Assembly (NCBI GenBank): GCA_963666685.2
Contig: CAXXHZ010000003.1
Location: 1,245,921-1,277,920 of the forward strand
DNA from: an uncultured Desulfobulbus sp.
Lineage (GTDB): Bacteria > Desulfobacterota > Desulfobulbia > Desulfobulbales > Desulfobulbaceae
Reading direction: 5' to 3'
Length of the DNA stretch: 32,000 nucleotides
How positions within the stretch are numbered: position 1 is the stretch's first letter; each line of letters opens with the position of its first letter. Position numbers and translations under genes: made by a program. The notes under the pieces are model-generated. The model was not told where the DNA came from, ran no database searches, and saw only the letters and a list, made by a program, of their open reading frames with translations. Positions 6,649 through 19,959 of this stretch are shown in pieces.

Positions 6649-6653
6649 GTTAT

Positions 6654-6690
6654 TGGTGAACGCGGCGGCATTCAAACCCGCAATTACCCT
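6654..6690 (-). repeat. decayed copy of the 3' end of tRNA-Arg(CCG) (att-like direct repeat)
   Basis: ttattggtgaacgCggcggCattcAaacccgcAa aligns with ttattggtgaacgAggcggGattcGaacccgcGa at 19738-19771 with 4 mismatches. It is in the same orientation and is preceded by the same kind of hairpin. Confidence 0.6.
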
Positions 6691-6887: not shown

Positions 6888-7118
6888 TCATGGGCGATGG
6901 GCGGCGTATTCGTCTAATAGCCGCCGAATCATTTTTTGATACTGGGTGTTATGCTTTTTCGCTTCGTTCTTAAAAAATTCGACACTCGCCTTGCTCAACG
7001 CAATTGTGACTTTAACGGTTTCATCCTTCAAGGCAAGTTCTTCAGGTGAGGGAAGAAAATCAGAAACTCTCTTCACCTTGCCTATAGGCTCTTCAGTGTA
7101 TTTGATTTTCTCTTTCAT
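6888..7118 (-). CDS. brnA: BrnA-type antitoxin (CopG/RHH-like)
   Basis: 76 aa. Carries the pattern DFLPSPEEL...VKVTIALSKASVEFFKNEAKKHNTQYQKMIRRLLDEYA characteristic of BrnA. Overlaps the upstream BrnT gene by 26 nt. Confidence 0.8.
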   Translation of the reverse strand: MKEKIKYTEEPIGKVKRVSDFLPSPEELALKDETVKVTIALSKASVEFFKNEAKKHNTQYQKMIRRLLDEYAAHRP

Positions 7119-7383
7119 ATATCCTCTTTCCTTTCCGCCAGTACCCTGCCCCGATGATTCGGATTTTGCCTTTTTGATGCGTGAACCTCACGGTCATAAT
7201 TCCGCCGGAAACTCTTCCCAGGCAATAATATCGCTTTTCCTGGTCGCTGTGTTCGACATCCTCTAAAATGATACGTTTATGATCTAAGAACGCAAGTTGA
7301 GCTAAAGCAAAAGCAACTCCGTGCTTTTCTTGGTTCAGCTGATCCTTCTCCGAATCCCATTCGAAATCAGATTGCTTACCCAT
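7093..7383 (-). CDS. brnT: BrnT-type (DUF497) ribonuclease toxin
   Basis: 96 aa. FEWDSEKDQLNQEKHGVAF...RYYCLGRVSGGIMTVRFTHQKGKIRIIGAGYWRKGKRIYE matches the DUF497/BrnT layout. Confidence 0.8.
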   Translation of the reverse strand: MGKQSDFEWDSEKDQLNQEKHGVAFALAQLAFLDHKRIILEDVEHSDQEKRYYCLGRVSGGIMTVRFTHQKGKIRIIGAGYWRKGKRIYERENQIH

Positions 7384-8262: not shown

Positions 8263-8711
8263 ATCAAAATACCTCAAAGTGATTCACGGAAAGCAATAAA
8301 AGCCGTCTGAAGCCCGGTTTAAATCCTCGATCCGCGTTTTTTTTCGGCTATTTTGATTCAAATCTTTTATGTTTTGATTCAACCAAAGGAAAGAGATGAA
8401 ATCAATAATTTCCCCCGAAATGTGGCTGTTCTCCCCCGGTGGTGAATGACTCTATTTGTCAGCTCAAGAGCGCCAGCGGTTTGGCGGGGGCGAATTCTCG
8501 CCGGTCGATAAATTAGAGGATACCGACCTTGCGAAAGGACTTTTTGATACCAACCGTCGCGACTACTAGCCCCCGATCTGCACGGCGCTGGTTATAACAT
8601 AATTAATATTGGTATCAAAACAGAAGTGGCGCCGGCAATCAACCTGGCCAAATGAAAACGGTATCATTAATCGAGATCCGGAGCAAACCTGGGATGAGTT
8701 TTTGATACCAA
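8260..8711. repeat. cluster of six TTTTGAT(T/A)C(C)AA motifs in non-coding DNA
   Basis: ttttgattcaa at 8351-8361 and 8372-8382, with an inverted copy at 8260-8269 that overlaps the mazF stop. tttttgataccaa at 8541-8553 and 8699-8711, with an inverted copy ttggtatcaaaa at 8609-8620. Confidence 0.6.
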
Positions 8712-9301
8712 GCAAAGCGGAAACCCAATCAGCAATCCTAGAAGAACAGGGCTTCCCTTCAATTGTGAGCATTGTGGAAAATCGATTAAAATTGAAGCAG
8801 CCTTGCTCTTTTCCCCTCCCAGTGGGGATATAGTGCAAAAGCACCATCTATGTGGCAACTGCTATCACTCTATTGTTCATAATTTCGTATCCTACGAAAA
8901 GTAACGATAGCAAATAGCTATGATGGATCGTCAGGAATCAACCAGAATTAAAATAGCGAGGTCAATAACTATTAAAGATGTTGACTTTCTAATTACGAAA
9001 TATTTTACAATGAATTGTAAGTCTACTGCCAGCACTGTGAATGATTAGCAGAAACTATTTAATTAAATTCGGTTCTCGATGAGAAATATGTCAGATGTCT
9101 TCTCTAACAAGTAATCACATATGGCTAAAGCAATTTTGCCGTCCTTTCACCTTTTTATTAATAAGTAAGTTGACAACCGAACATTGATTTTTTTTTTGCT
9201 CAACGATTCACGTTCAATTTGCATAAATATTGTTTAATCACCTAATCGATGATCGTCGAGATGTCAGATGATTAACGACCGCCTTAATAGGATAAAAAGA
9301 G

Positions 9302-10195
9302 ATGGCTCTGGCAATATCGACCTCGCAGCACCTCCGACCTTCGGCGATTGAACTGCTCGCCACGCTGCAACAACAAATTGACGCCTCAGAAAGAGGGCTT
9401 CAACGCTTTCTTCCAAAAAATCGAAAAAAGAAACGCTCTGCCACAACTTTGAAAGGTCTGCTTTCTGGGGACCAAAAATCGCATTCTTTCGATTCGATGC
9501 GCATGCTGGTGGCGATCGGCCTTTTACATTGGTCTGATGTACTCGGAAACAGCGCATCGCGCAGCTCTGCCATACCAAATGTCGCTGACTCACTAGCGTT
9601 CTCAGCATGCGCTCTCTGGCCACTTGTACTGATAAGGCATTTCCCAAAAAATTGGGAAGACGATTTGATAGAATTCTCTTCACCTCAAGTTGCTCAACTC
9701 CTGCTGGATGCACGTTTAGCTCTTCGGAAACACAATGAACATACTGTCTTTCCACTTTTTGCATCGGAGCTAACAAAACAAATCTATTCCAGAGGAATAT
9801 ATAATATTTTTGAGGATCTGAATGATGCAGAACGGGGTGCCCACGCCTTTGCTTCTGTCTTGAGGCTTTCTTCTAACAAGAAGATTCCGAAGCGACTTTC
9901 AACAAAAGATTTCTTTCTCTGGATTGGGTCGGCAGCCGTTACTGGCGCCATCGGAAACTTGTTTTATGACGAACTCAAGCAAGTCTGGTCAAATATCGAT
10001 ATTACACACGCGGTTAGTGGTGAAGTAAGCAGTGGATCTGGCGGTAGCTGCGACAACGCAGCATCGCTAAAGCATGATCCCGTTGCTGCAGGGCACGCAG
10101 TCAGCGCTCTTGCCCCCGCCCATTCCCATTCTGCACAGAGCACAACGGCCGATGATCTCGCCAACGGGCTTTCCAGCCTATTTGATCAAGATTAG
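9302..10195 (+). CDS. hypothetical protein (helical, disordered Ser/Ala/His-rich acidic C-tail)
   Basis: 297-aa ORF, the longest frame in this stretch. The overlapping minus-strand 170-aa ORF is R/S-rich and looks like a shadow frame. I recognise no motif. Confidence 0.5.
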   Translation: MALAISTSQHLRPSAIELLATLQQQIDASERGLQRFLPKNRKKKRSATTLKGLLSGDQKSHSFDSMRMLVAIGLLHWSDVLGNSASRSSAIPNVADSLAFSACALWPLVLIRHFPKNWEDDLIEFSSPQVAQLLLDARLALRKHNEHTVFPLFASELTKQIYSRGIYNIFEDLNDAERGAHAFASVLRLSSNKKIPKRLSTKDFFLWIGSAAVTGAIGNLFYDELKQVWSNIDITHAVSGEVSSGSGGSCDNAASLKHDPVAAGHAVSALAPAHSHSAQSTTADDLANGLSSLFDQD

Positions 10196-10232
10196 GCACG
10201 ATAGTGCCATCATCACTCGGAGGATTTCATCA

Positions 10233-10766
10233 ATGCAATGGATTTATCATTTATTGAATTATGCTTTGTGGGCAATCATTCTTGCTTTGCTGTGCATACC
10301 AATCAATATAGCTTTGATAGCGTTACGCTGGTGCTCTGCAAAATATATCTTCCATTTGTGGCGCGTTCGCAAAACACTAACAAAAGTTCCTGACGACTTG
10401 CTGCTACGGTCCGATGGAAAGCATGTTGTATTTGTCACGATAAGTCCAGATGGCACAGAGCAGTATCACCAATTCTATTCTGGTGTGTTAACCTGGAAAT
10501 CAGGACAACGACTTGTGAAGAAATTCCGTAGAACTGTAGACAAACAACTATTGTATCGATCGATTGCGTGGACTTTTATTGTGCTTCCATTATTTATTTC
10601 ATTTACATATTTTATTTTTAACAAACCTGAAGTTATTTCAACAAAGGATGTCTCCGAAATAAGGGGTTGTGTGTCTGGCATCCTGATATTAAGTATTCTT
10701 CAAGCTATGCCATTTACTTTGTTCATGTGGCCAGGACTGCAAGCACTTTTAGAAAATGTTGACTAA
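10233..10766 (+). CDS. hypothetical membrane protein (about 3 TM helices)
   Basis: Start chosen at ATG 10233 (MQWIYHLL), 8 nt after SD ggagga and 38 nt after the previous stop. TM segments: LWAIILALLCIPINIALIAL, IAWTFIVLPLFISFTYFIF and GILILSILQAMPFTLFMW. Confidence 0.55.
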   Translation: MQWIYHLLNYALWAIILALLCIPINIALIALRWCSAKYIFHLWRVRKTLTKVPDDLLLRSDGKHVVFVTISPDGTEQYHQFYSGVLTWKSGQRLVKKFRRTVDKQLLYRSIAWTFIVLPLFISFTYFIFNKPEVISTKDVSEIRGCVSGILILSILQAMPFTLFMWPGLQALLENVD

Positions 10767-10903
10767 TTTTTCTATCGGACCAGGTTGCAGGTTGTTTCAC
10801 CATTTCAATGTTACGTATAACTCTGAAAAGTGTTGACCAGCGGGATATTGACTTTTTCACGATATCTTCTCTGGACTACCCCTTCAGGTAGAAATGGGAT
10901 GAC

Positions 10904-11017
10904 ATTCGGTTTCTGGTTACCACTCAAAATTGCATGATATCCAGTTAGCCGGCACCCTAAAACGCCGATTTTCTGACATCTTGGCTTGAAATGGTGAGTG
11001 ATAGCCAGAAACCGGAT
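10904..11017. repeat. long imperfect inverted repeat / candidate structured RNA
   Basis: 10907-10925 (cggtttctggttaccactc) pairs with 10996-11014 (gagtgatagccagaaaccg): 17 Watson-Crick pairs, 1 G-U and 1 mismatch. The stem extends 3 bp outward and encloses 70 nt that contain smaller complementary segments. Confidence 0.6.
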
Positions 11018-11110
11018 AATAACTTGTTATGCCCCTGAAAACCATCTAGTCGACTGTAACCATTATGAAATATCATGAAACCTAATCGGTAACGTAAACG
11101 GAAACTCGTA

Positions 11111-11836
11111 ATGGCCCTAGAAGAATACGAAAAAACATTAGCGCGATTTCAACTGGAAAAACTGAATACTAAAGTTGACCTCCGGTTAAACAAGAACGGT
11201 AACATAGAAAAAACCCGCGATGGCGATTTGCAATTTGGCAATACCCAAATGAATGCAATGTTCAGGTTAGTTGAGAGATGGCGTCACAGTGAATCCACCA
11301 TAAATGAGTTATTTTTTCCAATGCTTCGCGCTGTAAAGCAACTTGAAAACTTGGAAAAGGAAAGAAAGCAAGGCACGAGCCCTTCGCTTAGCCAAGACCC
11401 AATAGCATATCACCGCGCGACAGAAGCTATTATTGAATATCAATCAGTCTCATCAGTGCTAGCAGGCTCAATTTTTGTTGTTGCGAATAATTTACTTCAA
11501 CGTTTTAGAATGGATCTGAATGCCTCTTGGGACGAGTGGAAATCAGCTATCCCAAAAATCAACAACTTTTCGATTGGCGAGATCTACTCGGCTGCTGCAG
11601 CAAATTTCAGACATTACGATGAATGGGCAATCTCTAAAAAGCCAGACCAAAAGCAACTTCCATCAATGACAGTACTTTGTGGGTTGCTTGACTACCCTGT
11701 TCAAACAAAACATGGATTCTCAACAATCCGAACAAATGTATGCGGAAGCATTCTAATGATGGTCAGCGAAGGGTCAATCGATGGTTTTCACCAGAAAACA
11801 TTTGACTATGTAAAGGCGCTGGCAAAATATCAGTAA
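11111..11836 (+). CDS. hypothetical protein (all-helical, function unknown)
   Basis: 241-aa ORF with no overlapping competitor. It contains R/H-rich segments (RLVERWRH, NFRHYDEW). I cannot assign these to a family. Confidence 0.6.
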   Translation: MALEEYEKTLARFQLEKLNTKVDLRLNKNGNIEKTRDGDLQFGNTQMNAMFRLVERWRHSESTINELFFPMLRAVKQLENLEKERKQGTSPSLSQDPIAYHRATEAIIEYQSVSSVLAGSIFVVANNLLQRFRMDLNASWDEWKSAIPKINNFSIGEIYSAAAANFRHYDEWAISKKPDQKQLPSMTVLCGLLDYPVQTKHGFSTIRTNVCGSILMMVSEGSIDGFHQKTFDYVKALAKYQ

Positions 11837-11985
11837 TGGGCTACGATCAGGCAGTTTTTGCATAAAGTTAACAGCATAAACCAGTCAATAAACCTGACCG
11901 GAAATGGCCACGTTCTTGAAAGGTGGGCAGCATCTCGGCCGGCAGGTTATTTCGCCGTTAGCAATTACTCATTATATAAATAAAT

Positions 11986-12873
11986 ATGGATAAAGTTAGC
12001 ACAGAACTTCTAAAAAGACTGCAATCAACTTCTAAACAATTGCTTACACATGCACTAGAGCACGCTCTCGATGAAACACAAAATGAAAGTAACGTACTGC
12101 AAACAATAATTAATATGCAGTCAGCTCTTGAATTATTGAGCAAATCATATGTTCTACGAAGAGATGGTTGGAAAGCAATTATCGACCCAAAATTTCATTC
12201 GCGTTCAGAATCTTTTCTTCTGTCAGCAATTGCGGATGGGTCAATTAAGACTATACCTTTTTGGAAAAGCCGAGAGATAGCATCTGAAACACTATACCTA
12301 AATGAAGAGGATAGGACTCTGCTAGATACATTTCAAAACAGAAGAAACCAGTTATTGCATTTGGGGTATATAAGTCCACCTAAAGAAATTCTCAATGAGG
12401 CAATATGGTTCTTGGTAAGAATTATTCATCAGCTAAAATGGAAAGAAATTTTACCAGTGAGCGATCAATATCTCACAAATAGTCTTAAGCTATTTATTGG
12501 CAGTGCACTCTATTATAAGTTAATGACAAACTCTTGTTATATCGATGAATCAATTGATCGAGCACACGATCTTTATCCATATGAAGTAACATATTGTTTA
12601 GAATGCGGAAAAGAATCTTTTGTAAAAACCGAAAAAGATAACTTGGTTTGTTTTGTTTGTGGATTTAAAGCAAACACAGATATTATCGGCTTCACCGATT
12701 GCCCATTGTGTGATACGGCTGAAACTGTAGCGTATGACAGGATGAATATTGGAATTAATGATAGAATTAATGGTAAATGCTGCAAATGTAGGGAATTCAT
12801 AGATGTATCAATGTGCAAGGAATGCGGTAATGTTTTTATTGCCGGAAAAATATGCGAATTTTGTGAATGCTAA
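11986..12873 (+). CDS. HEPN-motif protein with three C-terminal CxxC zinc ribbons (predicted RNase, uncharacterised)
   Basis: 295 aa. Helical N-terminal ~190 aa with FQNRRNQLLHLG, the Rx4H (RNxxxH) HEPN signature. The C-terminus has CLEC-x15-CFVC, CPLC-x24-CCKC and CKEC-x11-CEFCEC. AT-rich, with no SD before the ATG. Confidence 0.65.
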   Translation: MDKVSTELLKRLQSTSKQLLTHALEHALDETQNESNVLQTIINMQSALELLSKSYVLRRDGWKAIIDPKFHSRSESFLLSAIADGSIKTIPFWKSREIASETLYLNEEDRTLLDTFQNRRNQLLHLGYISPPKEILNEAIWFLVRIIHQLKWKEILPVSDQYLTNSLKLFIGSALYYKLMTNSCYIDESIDRAHDLYPYEVTYCLECGKESFVKTEKDNLVCFVCGFKANTDIIGFTDCPLCDTAETVAYDRMNIGINDRINGKCCKCREFIDVSMCKECGNVFIAGKICEFCEC

Positions 12874-13386: not shown

Positions 13387-14256
13387 TTAATAAATATAAT
13401 CACCAATCCATGGATAATCTGCTTTAGACAACAAGACTGCACATTGCCTGGCTCTTGCAAATGGCTTGGAATCTTTGATTTCAGATTTAAGTCTGGCGAT
13501 TGCGGCATCAAATCTTTTGTAAAAAACACTACCTGTTGCGGCTCCACTTTTTTGCCATATTTTGAACATAGCATCGGCATCCTTAATATCTCGTGAAATA
13601 TCAATTACATAGGCTCTACGTTGTTGTGCTATTTCTTTTTTATCCAGATGGAACAACCATATGGTAACTTTTAAACGCCCCAATTCCTCATCACTCGGAG
13701 AATCTTTTTTCAAAGTTGGAGTGCCATCGGGACTGAACCACAGTAGTGCCATATCAGCTACGTTACATGGATCAAATGGCAACACAGCTTCTTCGATCTG
13801 ATCCCATTCCGTTCCTTCTGGTGCTCTTGCTCCTTCAACGGGGAAAAAATCCCACTTGCCTCCTTCCGTTTCCTCATCAACTCGTCGTTGATTCGAATGC
13901 ATGCAAGACAAACGAAAATTTTTCGGTTCAAACGCCAACCACCAGTAGCCTGGCGATATATCCCCCGTTTTTTCCAAGGTGCTATGGTCGATTTCGACAA
14001 CCCTTCCCTTGGGACGGAAGTGATCAACATTTGGATCTGCTCCATCCAAAGGCACTTCGGAGTACCAGCACTTGTTTCCGACAGCGCTTCTCAACCATTC
14101 CAGCAAAGCACCGTTGCCCCAAGTTTCATCTCTCTTTGATTTGATGAACGCAGCTCTTTCTTCGGGATTTTTCTCCAGCAGCTCTTTCGTTAACTCCCGA
14201 GCCTTGGCCTCCCATGCGGGGTCAAAAGGCATGTCATAGGGATTTATATATATCAT
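13387..14256 (-). CDS. ptuB: HNH endonuclease, Septu PtuB-like
   Basis: 289 aa. HNH core NKCWYSEVPL...VDHFRPKG...WWLAFEPKNFRLSCMHSNQRR, as in the HNH nucleases that pair with AAA_15/21 ATPases. ATGA overlap with the upstream ATPase gene. Confidence 0.7.
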   Translation of the reverse strand: MIYINPYDMPFDPAWEAKARELTKELLEKNPEERAAFIKSKRDETWGNGALLEWLRSAVGNKCWYSEVPLDGADPNVDHFRPKGRVVEIDHSTLEKTGDISPGYWWLAFEPKNFRLSCMHSNQRRVDEETEGGKWDFFPVEGARAPEGTEWDQIEEAVLPFDPCNVADMALLWFSPDGTPTLKKDSPSDEELGRLKVTIWLFHLDKKEIAQQRRAYVIDISRDIKDADAMFKIWQKSGAATGSVFYKRFDAAIARLKSEIKDSKPFARARQCAVLLSKADYPWIGDYIY

Positions 14257-15797
14257 CCCTGCCCCCCACTAACAGCATCGTACAACTTCGAAGAAAGTTT
14301 ATCTATCGCCTCAATCTTCCAGTCGGGGTTCTCGTCGGATGAGACAATCTCATTCACAACAATTTCATAGGCCATTCGGGCTATATTTTGATATGGATCG
14401 GGAGATATCTCGTCAGGGGTAAGACTTGGCACAAGCTTCCGAAGACGCTCAAGGTCTCTTTGTTGCTTCGGGTACTTTTCTTCAGAGGCTACTTCATATA
14501 TTCGTTTCAATACCCGTAGGCTAAAGGGATCAAGCTGGCTCTCCAAGCCAAACAAGGGGCTTGTCAAAACCCCGGCAACGCCCCTCCCACGTGGACTCTC
14601 TTCAGGCTCTTTTGCAACTATTTGCCCTTTTTGATTTCGGTGCAGCACGCGAATTTCATTTTTACGCAACCCGGAAACGAGCAAGGGGTCATGGGTCGCA
14701 AGGATAGTATGACTATTCTTATCAATCTCACCGACATTGCGTAAATGCTCCAGATAGTCAACACCCCAAGCCGGATTCAGATGGGTGTCCGGCTCATCAA
14801 GGAAATAGAGGGATTCAGCATTTCTGGTAAAGCGCATGAGGCCCAGGACCGTTAACAACTGCTGCTCGCCTTCGCTCAATTGCCGGGTGTGAATTGAGTC
14901 ATCACTACCTTTCACCCTTACCTTTACACGAAATGAACTTTCATCGATAAATTCGCTCAGCCGCATAGTGTCGAGTGCCTGGAAGAGTGCACCGGGGTCT
15001 TTTCCGTATTCCCTGGCCAAGGATTGAAGTGCTTGTAAATCAGGCAGATAAAGATAAAGAAATTCTTTTGTCAGGTTGCGACGAAAATCAACTTTAGTCC
15101 TCACTGTACTTGAAAACGGGACGAGACTATGCCGCTTGATCGCTTCCAGCAAGTCACGGACCGGCCCTTTGGCACCCCAGAAATCCTTTGCCTCAGCATT
15201 TTTTTTAGCCCAGGATGGTTTGTTTAAAACGATAAGCAACGAATCGAATGCTTCAATCCTGGGAAGTTTTTCGAGAAATTTGCAGACTTCTATATCGTCG
15301 GAATAATAGAAGGCTAAAAGGGAAAAAAGACCGTGGATCGGTCGCGCACAAATAAAGCTGCTTAGATCAAGTTTGTCGTTATCCTGGTTGTCTTCCAGTG
15401 TTTTATTCAGGGCAATTTTGTCGTGTTCTTCAAATAGTTCTTTAAAACGATCACTCGTTCCGGAATAATACCCGACAACATACCGAGGAGAATACTTCTC
15501 TCTAACTACTGTTGCAGTAACATTCTTACCGTTAACAGTTGCAGTAGGCGTTTTCCCTTCAATCCCATTGAGGCAGACATGATGTCCAGCAATCTTGTAG
15601 CTGAGTTCATAGGAGAACGGGGCAGATTTCTTGAGATTCAATTGGGAAAATATGCTGATGAGCGCCTCAGCCAAGTTCGTTTTAGCGGAACCATTACGGC
15701 CAATCAATACGGTAACATCGCAAGACTCGTTAAAGTCGATACAGAATCCTTCAAGGTTTTTCCACTTGCTGGTAATTCTTAGCTTATTGATTCGCAT
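14253..15797 (-). CDS. ptuA: ABC/SMC-like AAA_15/AAA_21 ATPase, Septu PtuA-like
   Basis: 514 aa. Walker A GRNGSAKTN, signature-like LSEGEQQ, Walker B LYFLDEPDTHL, H-loop ILATHDP. The start overlaps the hsdS 3' end by 14 nt. Confidence 0.7.
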   Translation of the reverse strand: MRINKLRITSKWKNLEGFCIDFNESCDVTVLIGRNGSAKTNLAEALISIFSQLNLKKSAPFSYELSYKIAGHHVCLNGIEGKTPTATVNGKNVTATVVREKYSPRYVVGYYSGTSDRFKELFEEHDKIALNKTLEDNQDNDKLDLSSFICARPIHGLFSLLAFYYSDDIEVCKFLEKLPRIEAFDSLLIVLNKPSWAKKNAEAKDFWGAKGPVRDLLEAIKRHSLVPFSSTVRTKVDFRRNLTKEFLYLYLPDLQALQSLAREYGKDPGALFQALDTMRLSEFIDESSFRVKVRVKGSDDSIHTRQLSEGEQQLLTVLGLMRFTRNAESLYFLDEPDTHLNPAWGVDYLEHLRNVGEIDKNSHTILATHDPLLVSGLRKNEIRVLHRNQKGQIVAKEPEESPRGRGVAGVLTSPLFGLESQLDPFSLRVLKRIYEVASEEKYPKQQRDLERLRKLVPSLTPDEISPDPYQNIARMAYEIVVNEIVSSDENPDWKIEAIDKLSSKLYDAVSGGQG

Positions 15798-17373
15798 CGG
15801 TTATCCTCCGAATCGGCTCGTTCGAGCCGACAGGAACATCAAGCAGCGTGTTTCTGCCTTCGCGTAACAGCTCGAAAAAACGATCGATGTCGCCAGATAA
15901 ACCAGATTCTATAACAAGTCGATCCGCCGTTGCATTTCCGCCGAGTTGATCAAGAGCAGAAACAAGTTCATTGAGTGTTGTGACCGTTTTTGTTTTCACA
16001 TGGCGCTCTTTTTTTATTTTATTTGTCCGGGGCTCTCGTTTTTGTTCAGGCTCGTTCGCTTTCCCTTCCTTGATACGTTTCAAAAGCTCACTTGCAGGTT
16101 CGTCGTTGGGGGCTTGGGGCACCAATTCACCACGAAAGGCCTTATTAAGAAGAGAGGGCGTTAGTTGGGCGACCTGTTCGAGACCTGCTGCGTAGCGGGC
16201 TTCAAGGCGGTTGGCAAAGGAAAATAAAATTTCGACACGACGGACTATTTCGCGCTGCTCAGACAATTTGGGGACTAAAGCAGGCGCAGATACTACGGTC
16301 TGTTGGTTTATCTTTGGCATATTGCCGGCTGTGCCTGTAGCATTTTCGCGAAAATAATTACGAACCGGCTCGCTTGATAAGATGTAATAGAGGTATTCCG
16401 TCAATACACGATGATTAGGCCGACATTTCATCATTAAATCCGGATAAATGAAACTTTCAACTGGACCATCATAGATCGCACTTACTCCAACGTATTCAAT
16501 AGAATTTGCTCGTTGAATTAATATGTCGCCAGGCATCAACCATAGATGTGAATTTTTCGGGATGTCCTCGTCAATATATTTAGAATGTGCCCGATTGAAT
16601 CGACCGCTTGTAGTTGCTGAGAGAGTCAGTGAGCGTGTATTAGTTTGGAACGGAACAGCTTTGGGCGAGTATCCGTTCCGAGGTTTTTCAGCCAGCAGGT
16701 CACCAATTCGAACTTTCTCCCATTCAAACTCTTCTCCTTGATCTTCTCGCCACTCCTCCGTCAGAGTACCCGAAGTGGCGGCAGCAAGCACCGACTGGCG
16801 GAAACGTTTGAGAATTTGTGGCACCCGGTCCAGCCGGTCGCGGCATGCATCAACCCGCGCCAGCAATGCGTCGAGTTTATCAGCAATCCGTTTTTGTTCA
16901 TTGAGGGGAGCAAGTACAAAAGGGAGTTTTGCTGCGACCGAGCCAGAGAGTTCCTTGAAGGTCGTGCCGGTCGCCATCATTTCCGCAATAGGCTTGATAT
17001 GGCGCAAATAATAATAAACGAAGCGGCTGTCTGTCGATTCAGTCAGGACAAAACTTTTGAATCCCTGACTGGTAGTGACTTCAGTTGACGCGATTGCAAC
17101 GTACCCTACCGGTGCACGACTGGAAAACAAGACGCTTCCGGCAGGCATTTTCATCGCAGAGCAAGCCGAATAGCCTTTCTCGGAAAGATTCCGAGCCCCT
17201 TTGCTAATGTATGCATCTTTGTAACCGCTCAAATCCGCTGGAGTAATCCAAGGAATCCCACCCTGAGTCGTAAAATTCGTTGGGTCCTTTGATGGAGGAG
17301 TCCCGCCACCAACAACTTTTGCGACATCGCAGATCTCGCATTCAACCCAGTTTTCGGGCAACTCTGAGCTCAC
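15784..17373 (-). CDS. hsdS: type I restriction-modification specificity subunit HsdS with a ~90-aa C-terminal extension
   Basis: 529 aa. Two TRD halves, each followed by a conserved helical spacer (LNEQKRIADKLDALLARVDACRDRL... and LSEQREIVRRVEILFSFANRLEARY...LLNKAFRGELVPQ). GTG start overlaps the hsdM TGA. Confidence 0.85.
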   Translation of the reverse strand: MSSELPENWVECEICDVAKVVGGGTPPSKDPTNFTTQGGIPWITPADLSGYKDAYISKGARNLSEKGYSACSAMKMPAGSVLFSSRAPVGYVAIASTEVTTSQGFKSFVLTESTDSRFVYYYLRHIKPIAEMMATGTTFKELSGSVAAKLPFVLAPLNEQKRIADKLDALLARVDACRDRLDRVPQILKRFRQSVLAAATSGTLTEEWREDQGEEFEWEKVRIGDLLAEKPRNGYSPKAVPFQTNTRSLTLSATTSGRFNRAHSKYIDEDIPKNSHLWLMPGDILIQRANSIEYVGVSAIYDGPVESFIYPDLMMKCRPNHRVLTEYLYYILSSEPVRNYFRENATGTAGNMPKINQQTVVSAPALVPKLSEQREIVRRVEILFSFANRLEARYAAGLEQVAQLTPSLLNKAFRGELVPQAPNDEPASELLKRIKEGKANEPEQKREPRTNKIKKERHVKTKTVTTLNELVSALDQLGGNATADRLVIESGLSGDIDRFFELLREGRNTLLDVPVGSNEPIRRITDANQ

Positions 17374-18767
17374 CCCTCCACCTCCACACCCAGTTCCGCC
17401 ATAATCCCCCTCAACTCTGCCATGGCCGCTTCCAACGCCCCCATCGCTTCCTGCGCCAGGACCACCGGCTCGGAAAGTTCGTCGATTATTCCAAACCAGG
17501 AAATGTCGAGGCTGTCATCTTTGATGTCTTTAATCCATTCACGCGTAAAGCAGCGAAAGCGGCCTTCCTCCCCCAGATCCTTGCGCTTGAACTTGCCGTG
17601 GGGGGCATCGCCGAAACTGGCAATGAACTCCTTAAAATGCTCTTTTCCCAGCGGTGTCCGCTTACCGAAACTGGGCATATTGGCCCGCATGTCGTAAACC
17701 CAAACCTCTTTCGTATTCTCCTTGTCTTTCTCTCCCCGCGAGAAAAAGAGAACATTCGTCTTCACACCTTGGGAGTAGAATATACCGGTGGGAAGACGCA
17801 AGATCGTGTGGAGGTTGCACTTGTTCATCAGATCCTGACGAATATCTTTCCCCACCCCGCTCTCGAACAGAACATTATCGGGAAGTACCACTGCTGCCCG
17901 GCCACCCGCCTTAAGGCCAAGATAGATATGCTGTAAAAATAAGAACTGTTTATTGGCCGATGTGAACGGAATATCATCTCGCCCCTTTCTCGCGCCGCCA
18001 GCTTTTGCCCCAAATGGCGGATTAGCAAGTATCAAATCAGCAGGTTGCAATTCTCGGCAATCCTCGGAAAGGGCGTCACCCAGTATGATATTGGCGTTCA
18101 TTCGATGCAGGAATGTGTTCATCAGGCTGATACGGTGCGTTCCTTTTTCAATCTCCATACCTTGGTAAACAGGTGGATTGGCCAGATATTGAGATTTACT
18201 GTTTTCAGCCCGAATAAAGTGGTCGGCGGAAATTAGGAAGCCACAACTCCCTGATGCCGGATCTTGAATCACCTCTCCCAACTGCGGTTTCATCACCTGA
18301 ACAATACAATCAACCAACGCCCGAGGGGTAAAATATTGACCTGCGCCTGAACGCGCATCTTCAGAATTTTTTGCCAGCAAACCTTCGTATATCTGCCCAA
18401 AACCATCGTCTGATACCGAGTGCCAGTCGATTTTGTTTATCCCATCGATGACAGCCTTAAGGTTTTCCGAGTGATTAAAGACTGTTGTAGGAAATGCGTA
18501 TATCTCCCGTACCGTTTCCGTTGCACCCGCACCTCCAAGATGGGTCAACATCTCCTGATAGTAAAACAACAGGTTGTCGCCTTTGAAACTGACTAAATCT
18601 TTCCAGCGGTGTCTAGCAGGAAGGAGGTCTTCCGTCCCTGTCTCCTCCGCAATTTTCAGGAACAGAAGGTAGGTTAGCTCCGAAATATACTCATGGTAAC
18701 TGATGCCGTCACCACGCAGAATATTGCAGAGACTCCAGAGTCTTTGGACTATATTTTCGCTTTTCAT
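17370..18767 (-). CDS. hsdM: type I restriction-modification N6-adenine DNA methyltransferase HsdM
   Basis: 465 aa. HsdM N-terminal helix LWSLCNILRGDGISYHEYISELTYLLFLK, SAM motif DPASGSCGFL, catalytic NPPFG. Confidence 0.9.
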   Translation of the reverse strand: MKSENIVQRLWSLCNILRGDGISYHEYISELTYLLFLKIAEETGTEDLLPARHRWKDLVSFKGDNLLFYYQEMLTHLGGAGATETVREIYAFPTTVFNHSENLKAVIDGINKIDWHSVSDDGFGQIYEGLLAKNSEDARSGAGQYFTPRALVDCIVQVMKPQLGEVIQDPASGSCGFLISADHFIRAENSKSQYLANPPVYQGMEIEKGTHRISLMNTFLHRMNANIILGDALSEDCRELQPADLILANPPFGAKAGGARKGRDDIPFTSANKQFLFLQHIYLGLKAGGRAAVVLPDNVLFESGVGKDIRQDLMNKCNLHTILRLPTGIFYSQGVKTNVLFFSRGEKDKENTKEVWVYDMRANMPSFGKRTPLGKEHFKEFIASFGDAPHGKFKRKDLGEEGRFRCFTREWIKDIKDDSLDISWFGIIDELSEPVVLAQEAMGALEAAMAELRGIMAELGVEVEG

Positions 18768-19152: not shown

Positions 19153-19527
19153 TCACCCTTCGACAAGTCTCTTGAGCTTCTCGGCATATTCATTGGCCCG
19201 ACTCCTTGAATTCAGGGCCGCTTTTTTGTACCCGCTCCCCAGAGAGTCAAACAATACCATCTCCCGCTCCTCATGCTGCATGAGGGCGGTATAGGCAGCA
19301 ATCTTGACGGAGCGCTCCTGTTCGTCCCGCTGGGCAAGTAATGCTTGCGTGTTGGTCTTCAGTTCCTCCCCCTGCTGCCGGTAACCTAAAACCAGCCAGA
19401 GAAACGCTACCGGTGCGCAATATCCGGCCAGGATATCGCTCCACTCATTCAGCCTAAGCTGGGATACATCGGAAACCCAGTAGGCAGCTTGACTATTAAC
19501 ATTGGGGCACAAAACGGAAAAAGCCAC
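19153..19527 (-). CDS. hypothetical protein, possibly 5'-truncated
   Basis: 124-aa ORF with one TM-like helix (ILAGYCAPVAFLWLVLGY) and a coiled-coil-like tail. Its only start is a GTG lying inside the hairpin stem at 19523-19533. Confidence 0.4.
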   Translation of the reverse strand: MAFSVLCPNVNSQAAYWVSDVSQLRLNEWSDILAGYCAPVAFLWLVLGYRQQGEELKTNTQALLAQRDEQERSVKIAAYTALMQHEEREMVLFDSLGSGYKKAALNSRSRANEYAEKLKRLVEG

Positions 19528-19560
19528 TCAGTCAAAAATAGACTAAGTGGCTAATATTGT

Positions 19561-19610
19561 TGGTGCGCAAGGCAGGATTCGAACCCGCAGCCCACGGCTT
19601 AGAAGGCCGA
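19561..19610 (-). pseudogene. 3' fragment of a tRNA-Arg(UCU) (anticodon arm to CCA), 5' part absent
   Basis: The reverse complement reads TCGGC-CTTCTAA-GCCGT-GGGCT-GCGGG-TTCGAAT-CCTGC-CTTGCGC-A-CCA. No D-arm or 5' acceptor strand (GCGCAAG) follows. It is preceded by the hairpin gccactcagtc/gactaagtggc at 19523-19551. Confidence 0.6.
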
Positions 19611-19692
19611 ACAGATTGCGTGTTCCTTTGGTTTATTCTGCTGCGACTCGTTTAAGGGCTTTATGAGATAGGGGTAGCAATAGGGTAGCAAA

Positions 19693-19730
19693 GCTAAAAC
19701 AAGCCACTTAACCAAAACAAGTTAAGTGGC
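19693..19730 (-). terminator. intrinsic terminator of tRNA-Arg
   Basis: 10-bp perfect stem gccacttaac/gttaagtggc (19703-19712 / 19721-19730), starting 9 nt after the tRNA 3' end. It is followed on the minus strand by TTGTTTT. Confidence 0.55.
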
Positions 19731-19739
19731 TAATATTAT

Positions 19740-19816
19740 TGGTGAACGAGGCGGGATTCGAACCCGCGACCTTTGGCTTCGGAGGCCAACACTCTATCCA
19801 GCTGAGCTACCCGTCC
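19740..19816 (-). tRNA. tRNA-Arg (anticodon CCG), CCA encoded
   Basis: Folded by hand, 77 nt: GGACGGG-TA-GCTC-AGCTGGATA-GAGT-G-TTGGC-CTCCGAA-GCCAA-AGGTC-GCGGG-TTCGAAT-CCCGC-CTCGTTC-A-CCA. All four stems pair, with two G-U pairs in the acceptor stem. Confidence 0.9.
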
Positions 19817-19959
19817 ATTAAGTGAATTTGCGGATATTTCATACCATACAATCTTTCGGGTTCCTAGCCTAAAATGTCTGTTGCGGCCCAATGTTCTCCT
19901 GTGGGATTCTATAATCTCTTTTCGAACGGGATATTTTTCGCTCTCGGCATGAGCACAGA

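Follow-up and report, generated by a model that had tools for sequence, protein, structure and literature searches.

A four-gene block in a tRNA-Arg island of an uncultured Desulfobulbus sp. probably comprises three separate accessory modules

Does a run of four adjacent genes in a bacterial defence island form one system or several? The question is raised by a 32,000-nucleotide stretch of DNA, here called the window, from an uncultured Desulfobulbus sp. (NCBI GenBank assembly GCA_963666685.2, contig CAXXHZ010000003.1, positions 1,245,921 to 1,277,920 of the forward strand). Four open reading frames (ORFs) lie on the same strand of the window at 9302-12873. The original prediction treated them as a candidate multi-gene defence cassette and left two or three independent units as an alternative. 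From the analysis below, the block is probably three independently inherited accessory modules (ORF1-ORF2, ORF3 and ORF4) stacked in a tRNA-Arg island of approximately 13 kb together with BrnTA, MazEF, Septu and hsdM/hsdS.

Co-occurrence of the four gene families

The four same-strand ORFs were present as predicted.
9302-10195, + strand: ORF1, 297 amino acids (aa), soluble, first gene of a conserved two-gene module
10233-10766, + strand: ORF2, 177 aa (from ATG), predicted membrane protein with three transmembrane (TM) segments, second gene of the pair
11111-11836, + strand: ORF3, 241 aa, stand-alone, modelled as all-helical with an unmatched fold
11986-12873, + strand: ORF4, 295 aa, predicted HEPN domain and C-terminal zinc ribbons

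All four ORFs have homologues elsewhere, each in a conserved protein family, which shows them to be real genes rather than ORFs that arose by chance. The gaps between them are 37, 344 and 149 nt, each one nucleotide shorter than first given (38, 345 and 150). The Shine-Dalgarno sequence noted before ORF2 was read from the sequence as GGAGGA at 10219-10224 (+ strand), 8 nt before the ORF2 ATG. The block had been described as AT-rich. This holds for ORF2, ORF3 and ORF4, with GC contents of 0.380, 0.410 and 0.347, respectively, and fails for ORF1 at 0.483. For comparison, the window mean is 0.48 and the flanks are 0.55 and 0.51.

No placeable motif had been seen outside the last gene, and searches agreed with this. 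None of the four proteins had a significant match in Pfam, NCBIfam, PADLOC or PHROGs, and nothing significant was found overall when family members and consensus sequences were compared to the same four databases. A megablast search of Escherichia coli genomes and plasmids gave no match. ORF1, ORF2 and ORF4 had no match by tblastn in GenBank phages or PLSDB plasmids and no copy of any of the three was found in viral contigs.

Co-occurrence was assessed by tblastn of all four proteins against 37 related loci (locus numbers carry the prefix L). Loci with ORF4 relatives numbered 21 (L001-L005 and L022-L037), about 14-15 of them distinct after duplicate contigs were merged. About 26 loci with ORF3 relatives were fetched, and the tblastn comparison covers those among the 37. 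The only combination that recurred was ORF1 with ORF2. No relative of ORF1, ORF2 or ORF3 was encoded in the 21 ORF4 loci, and an all-against-all blastp of the ORF4 neighbours gave no common family except on duplicate contigs. The ORF3 loci contained no relative of ORF1, ORF2 or ORF4 by tblastn and no recurring partner. Two genes of 239 and 279 aa beside an ORF4 relative (L002) were tested as homologues of ORF3 or ORF1 and were not homologous. A relationship between ORF3 and ORF4 themselves was rejected by hhalign comparison.

Families that never occur together elsewhere had been named beforehand as the finding that would speak against a cassette, and this is what was found for all combinations except ORF1 with ORF2. 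The four-gene cassette was therefore abandoned in favour of the alternative, and the number of units is three. A membrane protein beside a ribonuclease (RNase) had also been read as an abortive-infection (Abi) layout. The ORF2 and ORF4 families were never together elsewhere, so this layout appears to be an accidental juxtaposition. Separate acquisitions are further suggested by the 344 and 149 nt gaps and by the differing GC contents (0.48, 0.38, 0.41 and 0.35 from ORF1 to ORF4). One point weighs on the other side: separate inheritance elsewhere is no proof against cooperation of the modules in this genome. For annotation pipelines the result is a warning that same-strand adjacency in a defence island is no evidence of a single system.

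Properties of the three modules

The ORF1-ORF2 pair was recognised through ORF2. A word-indexed search of 5.8 billion clusters with ORF1 returned only ORF1 itself. An exhaustive phmmer search with ORF2 gave 18 matches, about 11 of them collinear proteins (approximately 160 aa), and the distant relatives of ORF2 number about a dozen. The gene directly upstream of the ORF2 homologue was an ORF1 homologue in Streptomyces sp. NPDC054813 (L010, E-value 5e-14), in Micromonospora sp. NPDC049274 (L014, tblastn E-value 2.5e-19) and in a metagenome contig (L011/L012, E-value 1e-16 for L011). An apparent orphan in a search of this size was thus rescued via the conserved neighbourhood of its partner. The spacing of the two genes is 37 nt in the window, 52 nt in the Streptomyces locus and 25 nt in the metagenome contig, and the genes overlap in Micromonospora.

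The four ORF1 sequences aligned collinearly from end to end, and 34 positions were invariant. The conserved core contains ALWP.V...P..W and DL.D..RG, and a short L....F is conserved at the C-terminus. ORF1 is mostly helical, with a basic N-terminal helical region and a Ser/Gly/His-rich linker before the C-terminal L....F. No TM segment was predicted in ORF1. No database family matched ORF1, ORF2 or their relatives. As judged by neighbourhood and alignment, ORF1-ORF2 is a genuine conserved and tightly linked pair across two phyla, Proteobacteria and Actinobacteria. A distant ORF2 relative (L013) without an ORF1-like neighbour counts against this. A 79-aa gene of the Streptomyces locus was considered as a third member and was rejected as not conserved.

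The three TM segments originally predicted in ORF2 were recovered by a hydropathy scan as hydrophobic segments at residues 11-29, 111-129 and 146-164. The first is followed by a loop of about 75 aa, which carries Y-[ST]-G-x-L-T-W-x-x-G and a basic stretch, and then by the other two. The positive-inside rule predicts the loop to be cytoplasmic. ORF2 is thus a putative inner-membrane protein with a loop domain of about 75 aa facing the cytoplasm. Soluble ORF1 might regulate or sense for ORF2, and ORF2 might act as a membrane-perturbing effector.

The pair recalls two-gene defence systems of a soluble and a small membrane protein, such as Kiwa KwaA/KwaB. Both are tightly linked soluble and multi-TM pairs, and ORF1-ORF2 also lies in a defence island. 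They differ in that no PADLOC model, including Kiwa, matched ORF1 or ORF2, and in that the soluble protein comes first in ORF1-ORF2. The ORF1-ORF2 family is also tiny, mostly actinobacterial and without clear defence neighbours.

ORF4 belongs to a family of 19 homologous clusters, all of about 295 aa. The closest relative with an organism name comes from a Nitrosomonas metagenome-assembled genome (MAG). An HEPN motif had been predicted in ORF4, and the R-x4-H pattern is present and invariant in the 19 members. The protein was divided as follows.
11986-12585, + strand: N-terminal helical domain, residues 1-200, predicted HEPN RNase domain
12343-12360, + strand: codons of the Rx4H motif, R120-N-Q-L-L-H125, with R120, N121, Q122 and H125 invariant in 19 sequences of 43-71% identity
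12595-12873, + strand: C-terminal triple zinc-ribbon module, residues 204-293, plus the stop codon

HEPN domains have a core of four bundled helices, in which an insert separates helices 2 and 3, and the criterion for the family is an Rx4-6H motif where core helix 3 ends and the loop to helix 4 starts (Anantharaman et al. 2013, PMC3710099). An AlphaFold2 model of ORF4 built on the family alignment had a predicted local distance difference test score (pLDDT) of 91.6 and a predicted template modelling score (pTM) of 0.85. Helices were modelled at residues 3-27, 34-60, 107-125 and 132-145, with an insert at 61-106 that contains two short helices. The helix at 107-125 ends at H125 and is followed in the model by a loop at 126-131 and the helix at 132-145. 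E49 in helix 2 is invariant in the 19 sequences. The motif, E49 and the helix order fit each HEPN point in PMC3710099, and ORF4 is therefore called a new HEPN family.

The C-terminus of the model is rich in beta-hairpins. Twelve Cys residues are invariant and form six CxxC pairs at 204/207, 222/225, 239/242, 265/268, 277/280 and 290/293. This gives two CxxC knuckles for each ribbon, and the model has beta-hairpins at these positions. The Pfam double zinc ribbon family DZR matched 7 of the 19 members (best E-value 1.3e-4). Weak matches to the ribosomal zinc ribbons S27e and L37ae were also found in this region.

Searches for direct matches gave results on both sides of the HEPN assignment. In its favour, HEPN_Apea was the only nuclease family among the weak Pfam matches, and the top PDB matches by Foldseek were enriched for MNT-HEPN toxins at target TM-scores of 0.45-0.60. 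Against it, HEPN_Apea had E-values of 0.08-0.15 and was below the cut-off, the Foldseek E-values for HEPN chains were 0.58 or worse (about 0.6-2), and a profile search of PDB sequences returned zinc ribbons only. With these included, the sequence and the model taken together give good support that ORF4 represents a new HEPN family in which the domain is joined to three zinc ribbons.

Among known proteins ORF4 is most readily compared to the Abi-type HEPN proteins (AbiD/AbiF/Abi_2, AbiJ, AbiU2 and ApeA-like; PMC3710099). ORF4 is likewise a single gene with no conserved partner. It shares the Rx4H at the end of helix 3, the acidic residue in helix 2 and the insert between helices 2 and 3, and its relatives lie near restriction-modification and other defence genes. 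It differs in that no significant match, in sequence or in structure, links it to these families, and a C-terminus of three zinc ribbons with 12 invariant Cys is peculiar to the ORF4 family (about 19 clusters). Fusions of HEPN with zinc ribbons have been listed as Npun_R5629 and EC042_2821 (PMC3710099). The best structural neighbours of the N-terminal domain, at non-significant scores, are the MNT-HEPN toxin-antitoxin systems (SO_3166/SO_3165 and HpeT/MntA; PDB 5yep, 6m6w and 8xeh). These have the same type of catalytic motif. Their toxins, however, have a length of about 130 aa and an MNT nucleotidyltransferase from the adjacent gene as neutralising partner, whereas ORF4 is 295 aa with zinc ribbons instead and no conserved neighbour.

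ORF4 would act as a stand-alone, metal-independent RNase in which R120 and H125 are catalytic and E49 is auxiliary. The zinc ribbons may bind nucleic acid or a trigger and may restrain the RNase until infection (autoinhibition). Cleavage of RNA would then arrest the cell or the phage, as with stand-alone Abi-type HEPN proteins. If so, ORF4 would add a distinct architecture of HEPN and triple zinc ribbon to the repertoire of single-gene RNase effectors.

The neighbours of the ORF4 relatives included LysR, a type I/IIG restriction-modification system, transposases, a CHAT protease, ThiF+JAB, DUF6602/DUF6615 and HrcA. No conserved adjacent antitoxin of the type II toxin-antitoxin kind was found, and no neighbour family was common to the non-duplicate loci. 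Three neighbours were of types found in conflict systems and did not recur. These were a ThiF+JAB fusion protein (L032, 3867-5246), a CHAT-domain protein (L027, 2559-4937) and a DUF6602/DUF6615 pair (L035, 367-3057), each adjoining an ORF4 homologue.

ORF3 has 92 homologous clusters and occurs as a singleton in varied mobile contexts. The AlphaFold2 model had a pLDDT of 92.6 and a pTM of 0.88, and in it long helices come after a small beta-hairpin region at the N-terminus. The best Foldseek E-values were 0.13 (PDB) and 0.28 (BFVD), to generic coiled coils, and a profile search of PDB sequences was empty. The motif A-N-F-R-H-x-D-E-W (residues 163-172) is near-invariant. Residues R52, W57, R58, G119, A163, N165-F-R-H168, D170-E-W172, Q182, S185, N209 and C211 are kept in viral homologues at 26-27% identity. 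The conserved residues look like an active or binding site, and the polar cluster of R52, R58, N165, R167, H168, D170 and E171 appears enzyme-like. Nearer the N-terminus, residues 23-43 (11177-11239) hold the conserved D-L-x-L-x3-G-D-I-x4-D-G-D-L-Q-x-G, which is followed by F-R-L-V-E-R-W-R. This pattern recalls the N-termini of Mu gp46-like and gp25-like baseplate proteins, a resemblance that neither PHROGs nor BFVD supported.

Defence and mobile-element contexts

The relatives of ORF3 were found in a range of mobile elements. Seven IMG/VR viral contigs carried one. In one of these, a P2-like prophage, it lies between the integrase and an IrrE/helix-turn-helix (HTH) regulator; in others it adjoins phage Dam and Dcm methylases. 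One relative was in a TraG-bearing element of conjugative type. Three distant relatives were found on plasmids by tblastn against PLSDB, two in Burkholderia and one in Methylobacterium, within integrase modules, and the corresponding search of GenBank phages gave none. There they end arrays of small genes located after an integrase and an HTH regulator. In a Burkholderia glumae plasmid (L048, 1988-3918) genes for a SLATT-domain protein and for a nucleotidyltransferase separate the small-gene array from the integrase.

The Glaciimonas relative follows BREX brxL. In Methylobacter sp. BBA5.1 (L045, 1-5726) the ORF3 homologue is 201 nt downstream of, and on the same strand as, a gene for a 1924-aa STAND/NACHT-type nucleoside triphosphatase (NTPase). 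IS66 and three integrase genes follow the homologue in this locus. Its distribution marks ORF3 as conflict-related cargo of mobile elements, with a possible role in either defence or counter-defence. ORF3 may be a self-contained effector in conflicts involving phages or other mobile genetic elements.

The chance that one or more of the three modules represents an anti-phage (or counter-defence) system not described before is put at somewhat less than even. As a candidate for this the ORF3 family ranks first, the HEPN-triple-zinc-ribbon protein ORF4 second and the ORF1-ORF2 pair third. Widely mobile proteins with a confident but unmatched fold, like ORF3, have repeatedly proved to have new immune or anti-immune functions. 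ORF4, if the proposal is true, would be a new self-contained RNase immune effector.

A number of observations weigh against a defence role. Housekeeping genes were neighbours of some homologues. The Sideroxydans relative of ORF3 is flanked by hisG and an EPSP_synthase-family gene (probably murA), another ORF3 relative, in a MAG, follows tpiA, and one ORF4 relative follows hrcA. The actinobacterial pair loci had no clearly defensive context. Searching PADLOC-DB v2.0.0 with the four proteins gave a best E-value of 0.019, between the zinc-ribbon region and Cas7_IIIf, and nothing meaningful was found in PADLOC for 55 members of the ORF3 family.

The alternative that survives best is that mobile elements carry the modules as selfish or counter-defence cargo and that they do not serve host defence. 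ORF3 would then be an anti-restriction, anti-defence or establishment protein, ORF4 an addiction-type toxin and ORF1-ORF2 a membrane housekeeping or stress module. The phage methylases beside ORF3 relatives, the TraG-bearing element, the plasmid arrays of small genes and the actinobacterial ORF1-ORF2 loci without obvious defence neighbours all fit this. It is nonetheless considered unlikely. ORF3 also lies directly after BREX and after a STAND NTPase, no conserved antitoxin-like partner was found beside ORF4, and there was no similarity to phage protein families in PHROGs. The integrase-proximal position of P2-like prophages, which one ORF3 relative occupies, is said in work by Rousset et al. 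from 2022 to hold defence genes.

The gap between ORF2 and ORF3 had been noted to hold a long hairpin. The hairpin is real, at 10904-11017, and is imperfect, with 31-nt arms that are 81% complementary and a 52-nt loop. Its minimum free energy (in kcal/mol) is -45.4 for the + strand and -43.4 for the - strand. Compared to shuffled controls it folds with a z-score of about -4.3 on either strand. No Rfam match was found, and no related locus contained a counterpart in sequence. Most plausibly, the hairpin marks the join between modules that were acquired separately, or it serves as a terminator or insulator.

A functional non-coding partner of ORF3 or of ORF1-ORF2, such as a cis-regulatory leader or an antitoxin-like RNA, was weighed as another explanation of the hairpin. 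The stable structure agrees with this, as does the ORF3 locus of Sideroxydans, which has its own hairpin. That hairpin (L006, 2772-2948) is approximately 180 nt with 51-nt arms and a z-score of -5.0. Like the window hairpin it stops 93 nt short of the start codon, but the two have no obvious sequence similarity, and the shared spacing is recorded as a coincidence. Opposed to a partner role are the missing Rfam family and counterparts, the seven loci with ORF3 relatives that have no upstream hairpin (L008, L015, L016, L017, L021, L045 and L047) and the equal folding of both strands, as would be expected of a plain DNA inverted repeat. Such a role is improbable.

That the four genes are one abortive-infection system, with ORF2 and ORF4 as effectors and ORF1 and ORF3 as sensors or regulators, is very doubtful and largely refuted: the genes are contiguous on one strand of a defence island and a consensus scan found no strong + strand terminator between them, but apart from ORF1 with ORF2 the families are never together elsewhere, the gaps and GC contents suggest separate acquisitions, and the relatives of ORF3 and of ORF4 are maintained singly in dozens of unrelated settings.

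With three separate modules as the favoured reading, a block of four unplaced genes becomes three delimited candidates, each with a family, conserved residues and a target for mutagenesis. Current ideas are not overturned by this. The three families are clean and experimentally tractable.

The island and its neighbouring genes

The block had been placed in a tRNA-anchored defence island. Repeats of the 3' end of a tRNA-Arg gene bracket a low-GC island of approximately 13 kb that is rich in defence and toxin-antitoxin genes. The features of the boundary are given below.
19740-19816, - strand: tRNA-Arg(CCG), integration site of the island (ARAGORN and Rfam)
19736-19767: 3' part of the tRNA-Arg gene, repeated at 19544-19588 and 6650-6681
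19544-19588: partial second copy of the tRNA-Arg 3' part, 89% identical over 45 nt
6650-6681: distal direct repeat of the tRNA-Arg 3' end, far boundary of the island (blastn of 19651-19900 against the window, 91% over 32 nt)

The three direct-repeat copies delimit the island of about 13 kb and an inner segment of about 200 bp. GC content drops from 0.55 in the left flank to 0.35-0.48 within the island. The repeats and the low-GC stretch between them confirm the tRNA-anchored island. Islands of this stacked kind, and hotspots in prophages and satellites, were reportedly described by Rousset et al. in 2022. Like them, the island in the window has repeats of the tRNA 3' end at its boundaries and is packed with immunity and toxin-antitoxin modules that are unrelated to one another. 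It differs in that no integrase was evident, either in the ORF list or as an integrase domain in the ORFs tested. A 123-aa ORF at 19153-19527 (- strand), in the interval between hsdM and the tRNA repeats, had no Pfam match and lies at a site where one might expect an integrase remnant or excisionase.

The four genes had been placed between mazEF and convergent Septu-like genes, and this position was confirmed, with MazEF upstream and PtuB/PtuA downstream.
6888-7383, - strand: BrnT/BrnA toxin-antitoxin pair at the island edge, adjoining MazEF
13387-14256, - strand: ptuB of Septu (PADLOC PtuB, E-value 3.1e-56), convergent with ORF4
14253-15797, - strand: ptuA of Septu (PADLOC PtuA, E-value 3.7e-149), overlapping ptuB by 4 nt

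From these matches 13387-15797 is clearly a Septu system, an operon of a PtuA ATPase and a PtuB HNH nuclease. Type I hsdS and hsdM lie beyond ptuA on the same strand, and hsdM, hsdS, ptuA and ptuB form one array at 13387-18767 (- strand). Overlaps of 4 nt (hsdM/hsdS) and 14 nt (hsdS/ptuA) occur in the array. No ORF within the window is long enough for hsdR, so Septu appears to be fused onto a type I modification and specificity (M+S) operon without a restriction subunit.

The interval between mazF and ORF1 (8263-9301, approximately 1 kb) has a GC content of 0.40 and contains no ORF above 93 aa on either strand. It had no match in Rfam or in the related loci. This stretch may be what is left of a decayed gene, or it may be non-coding.

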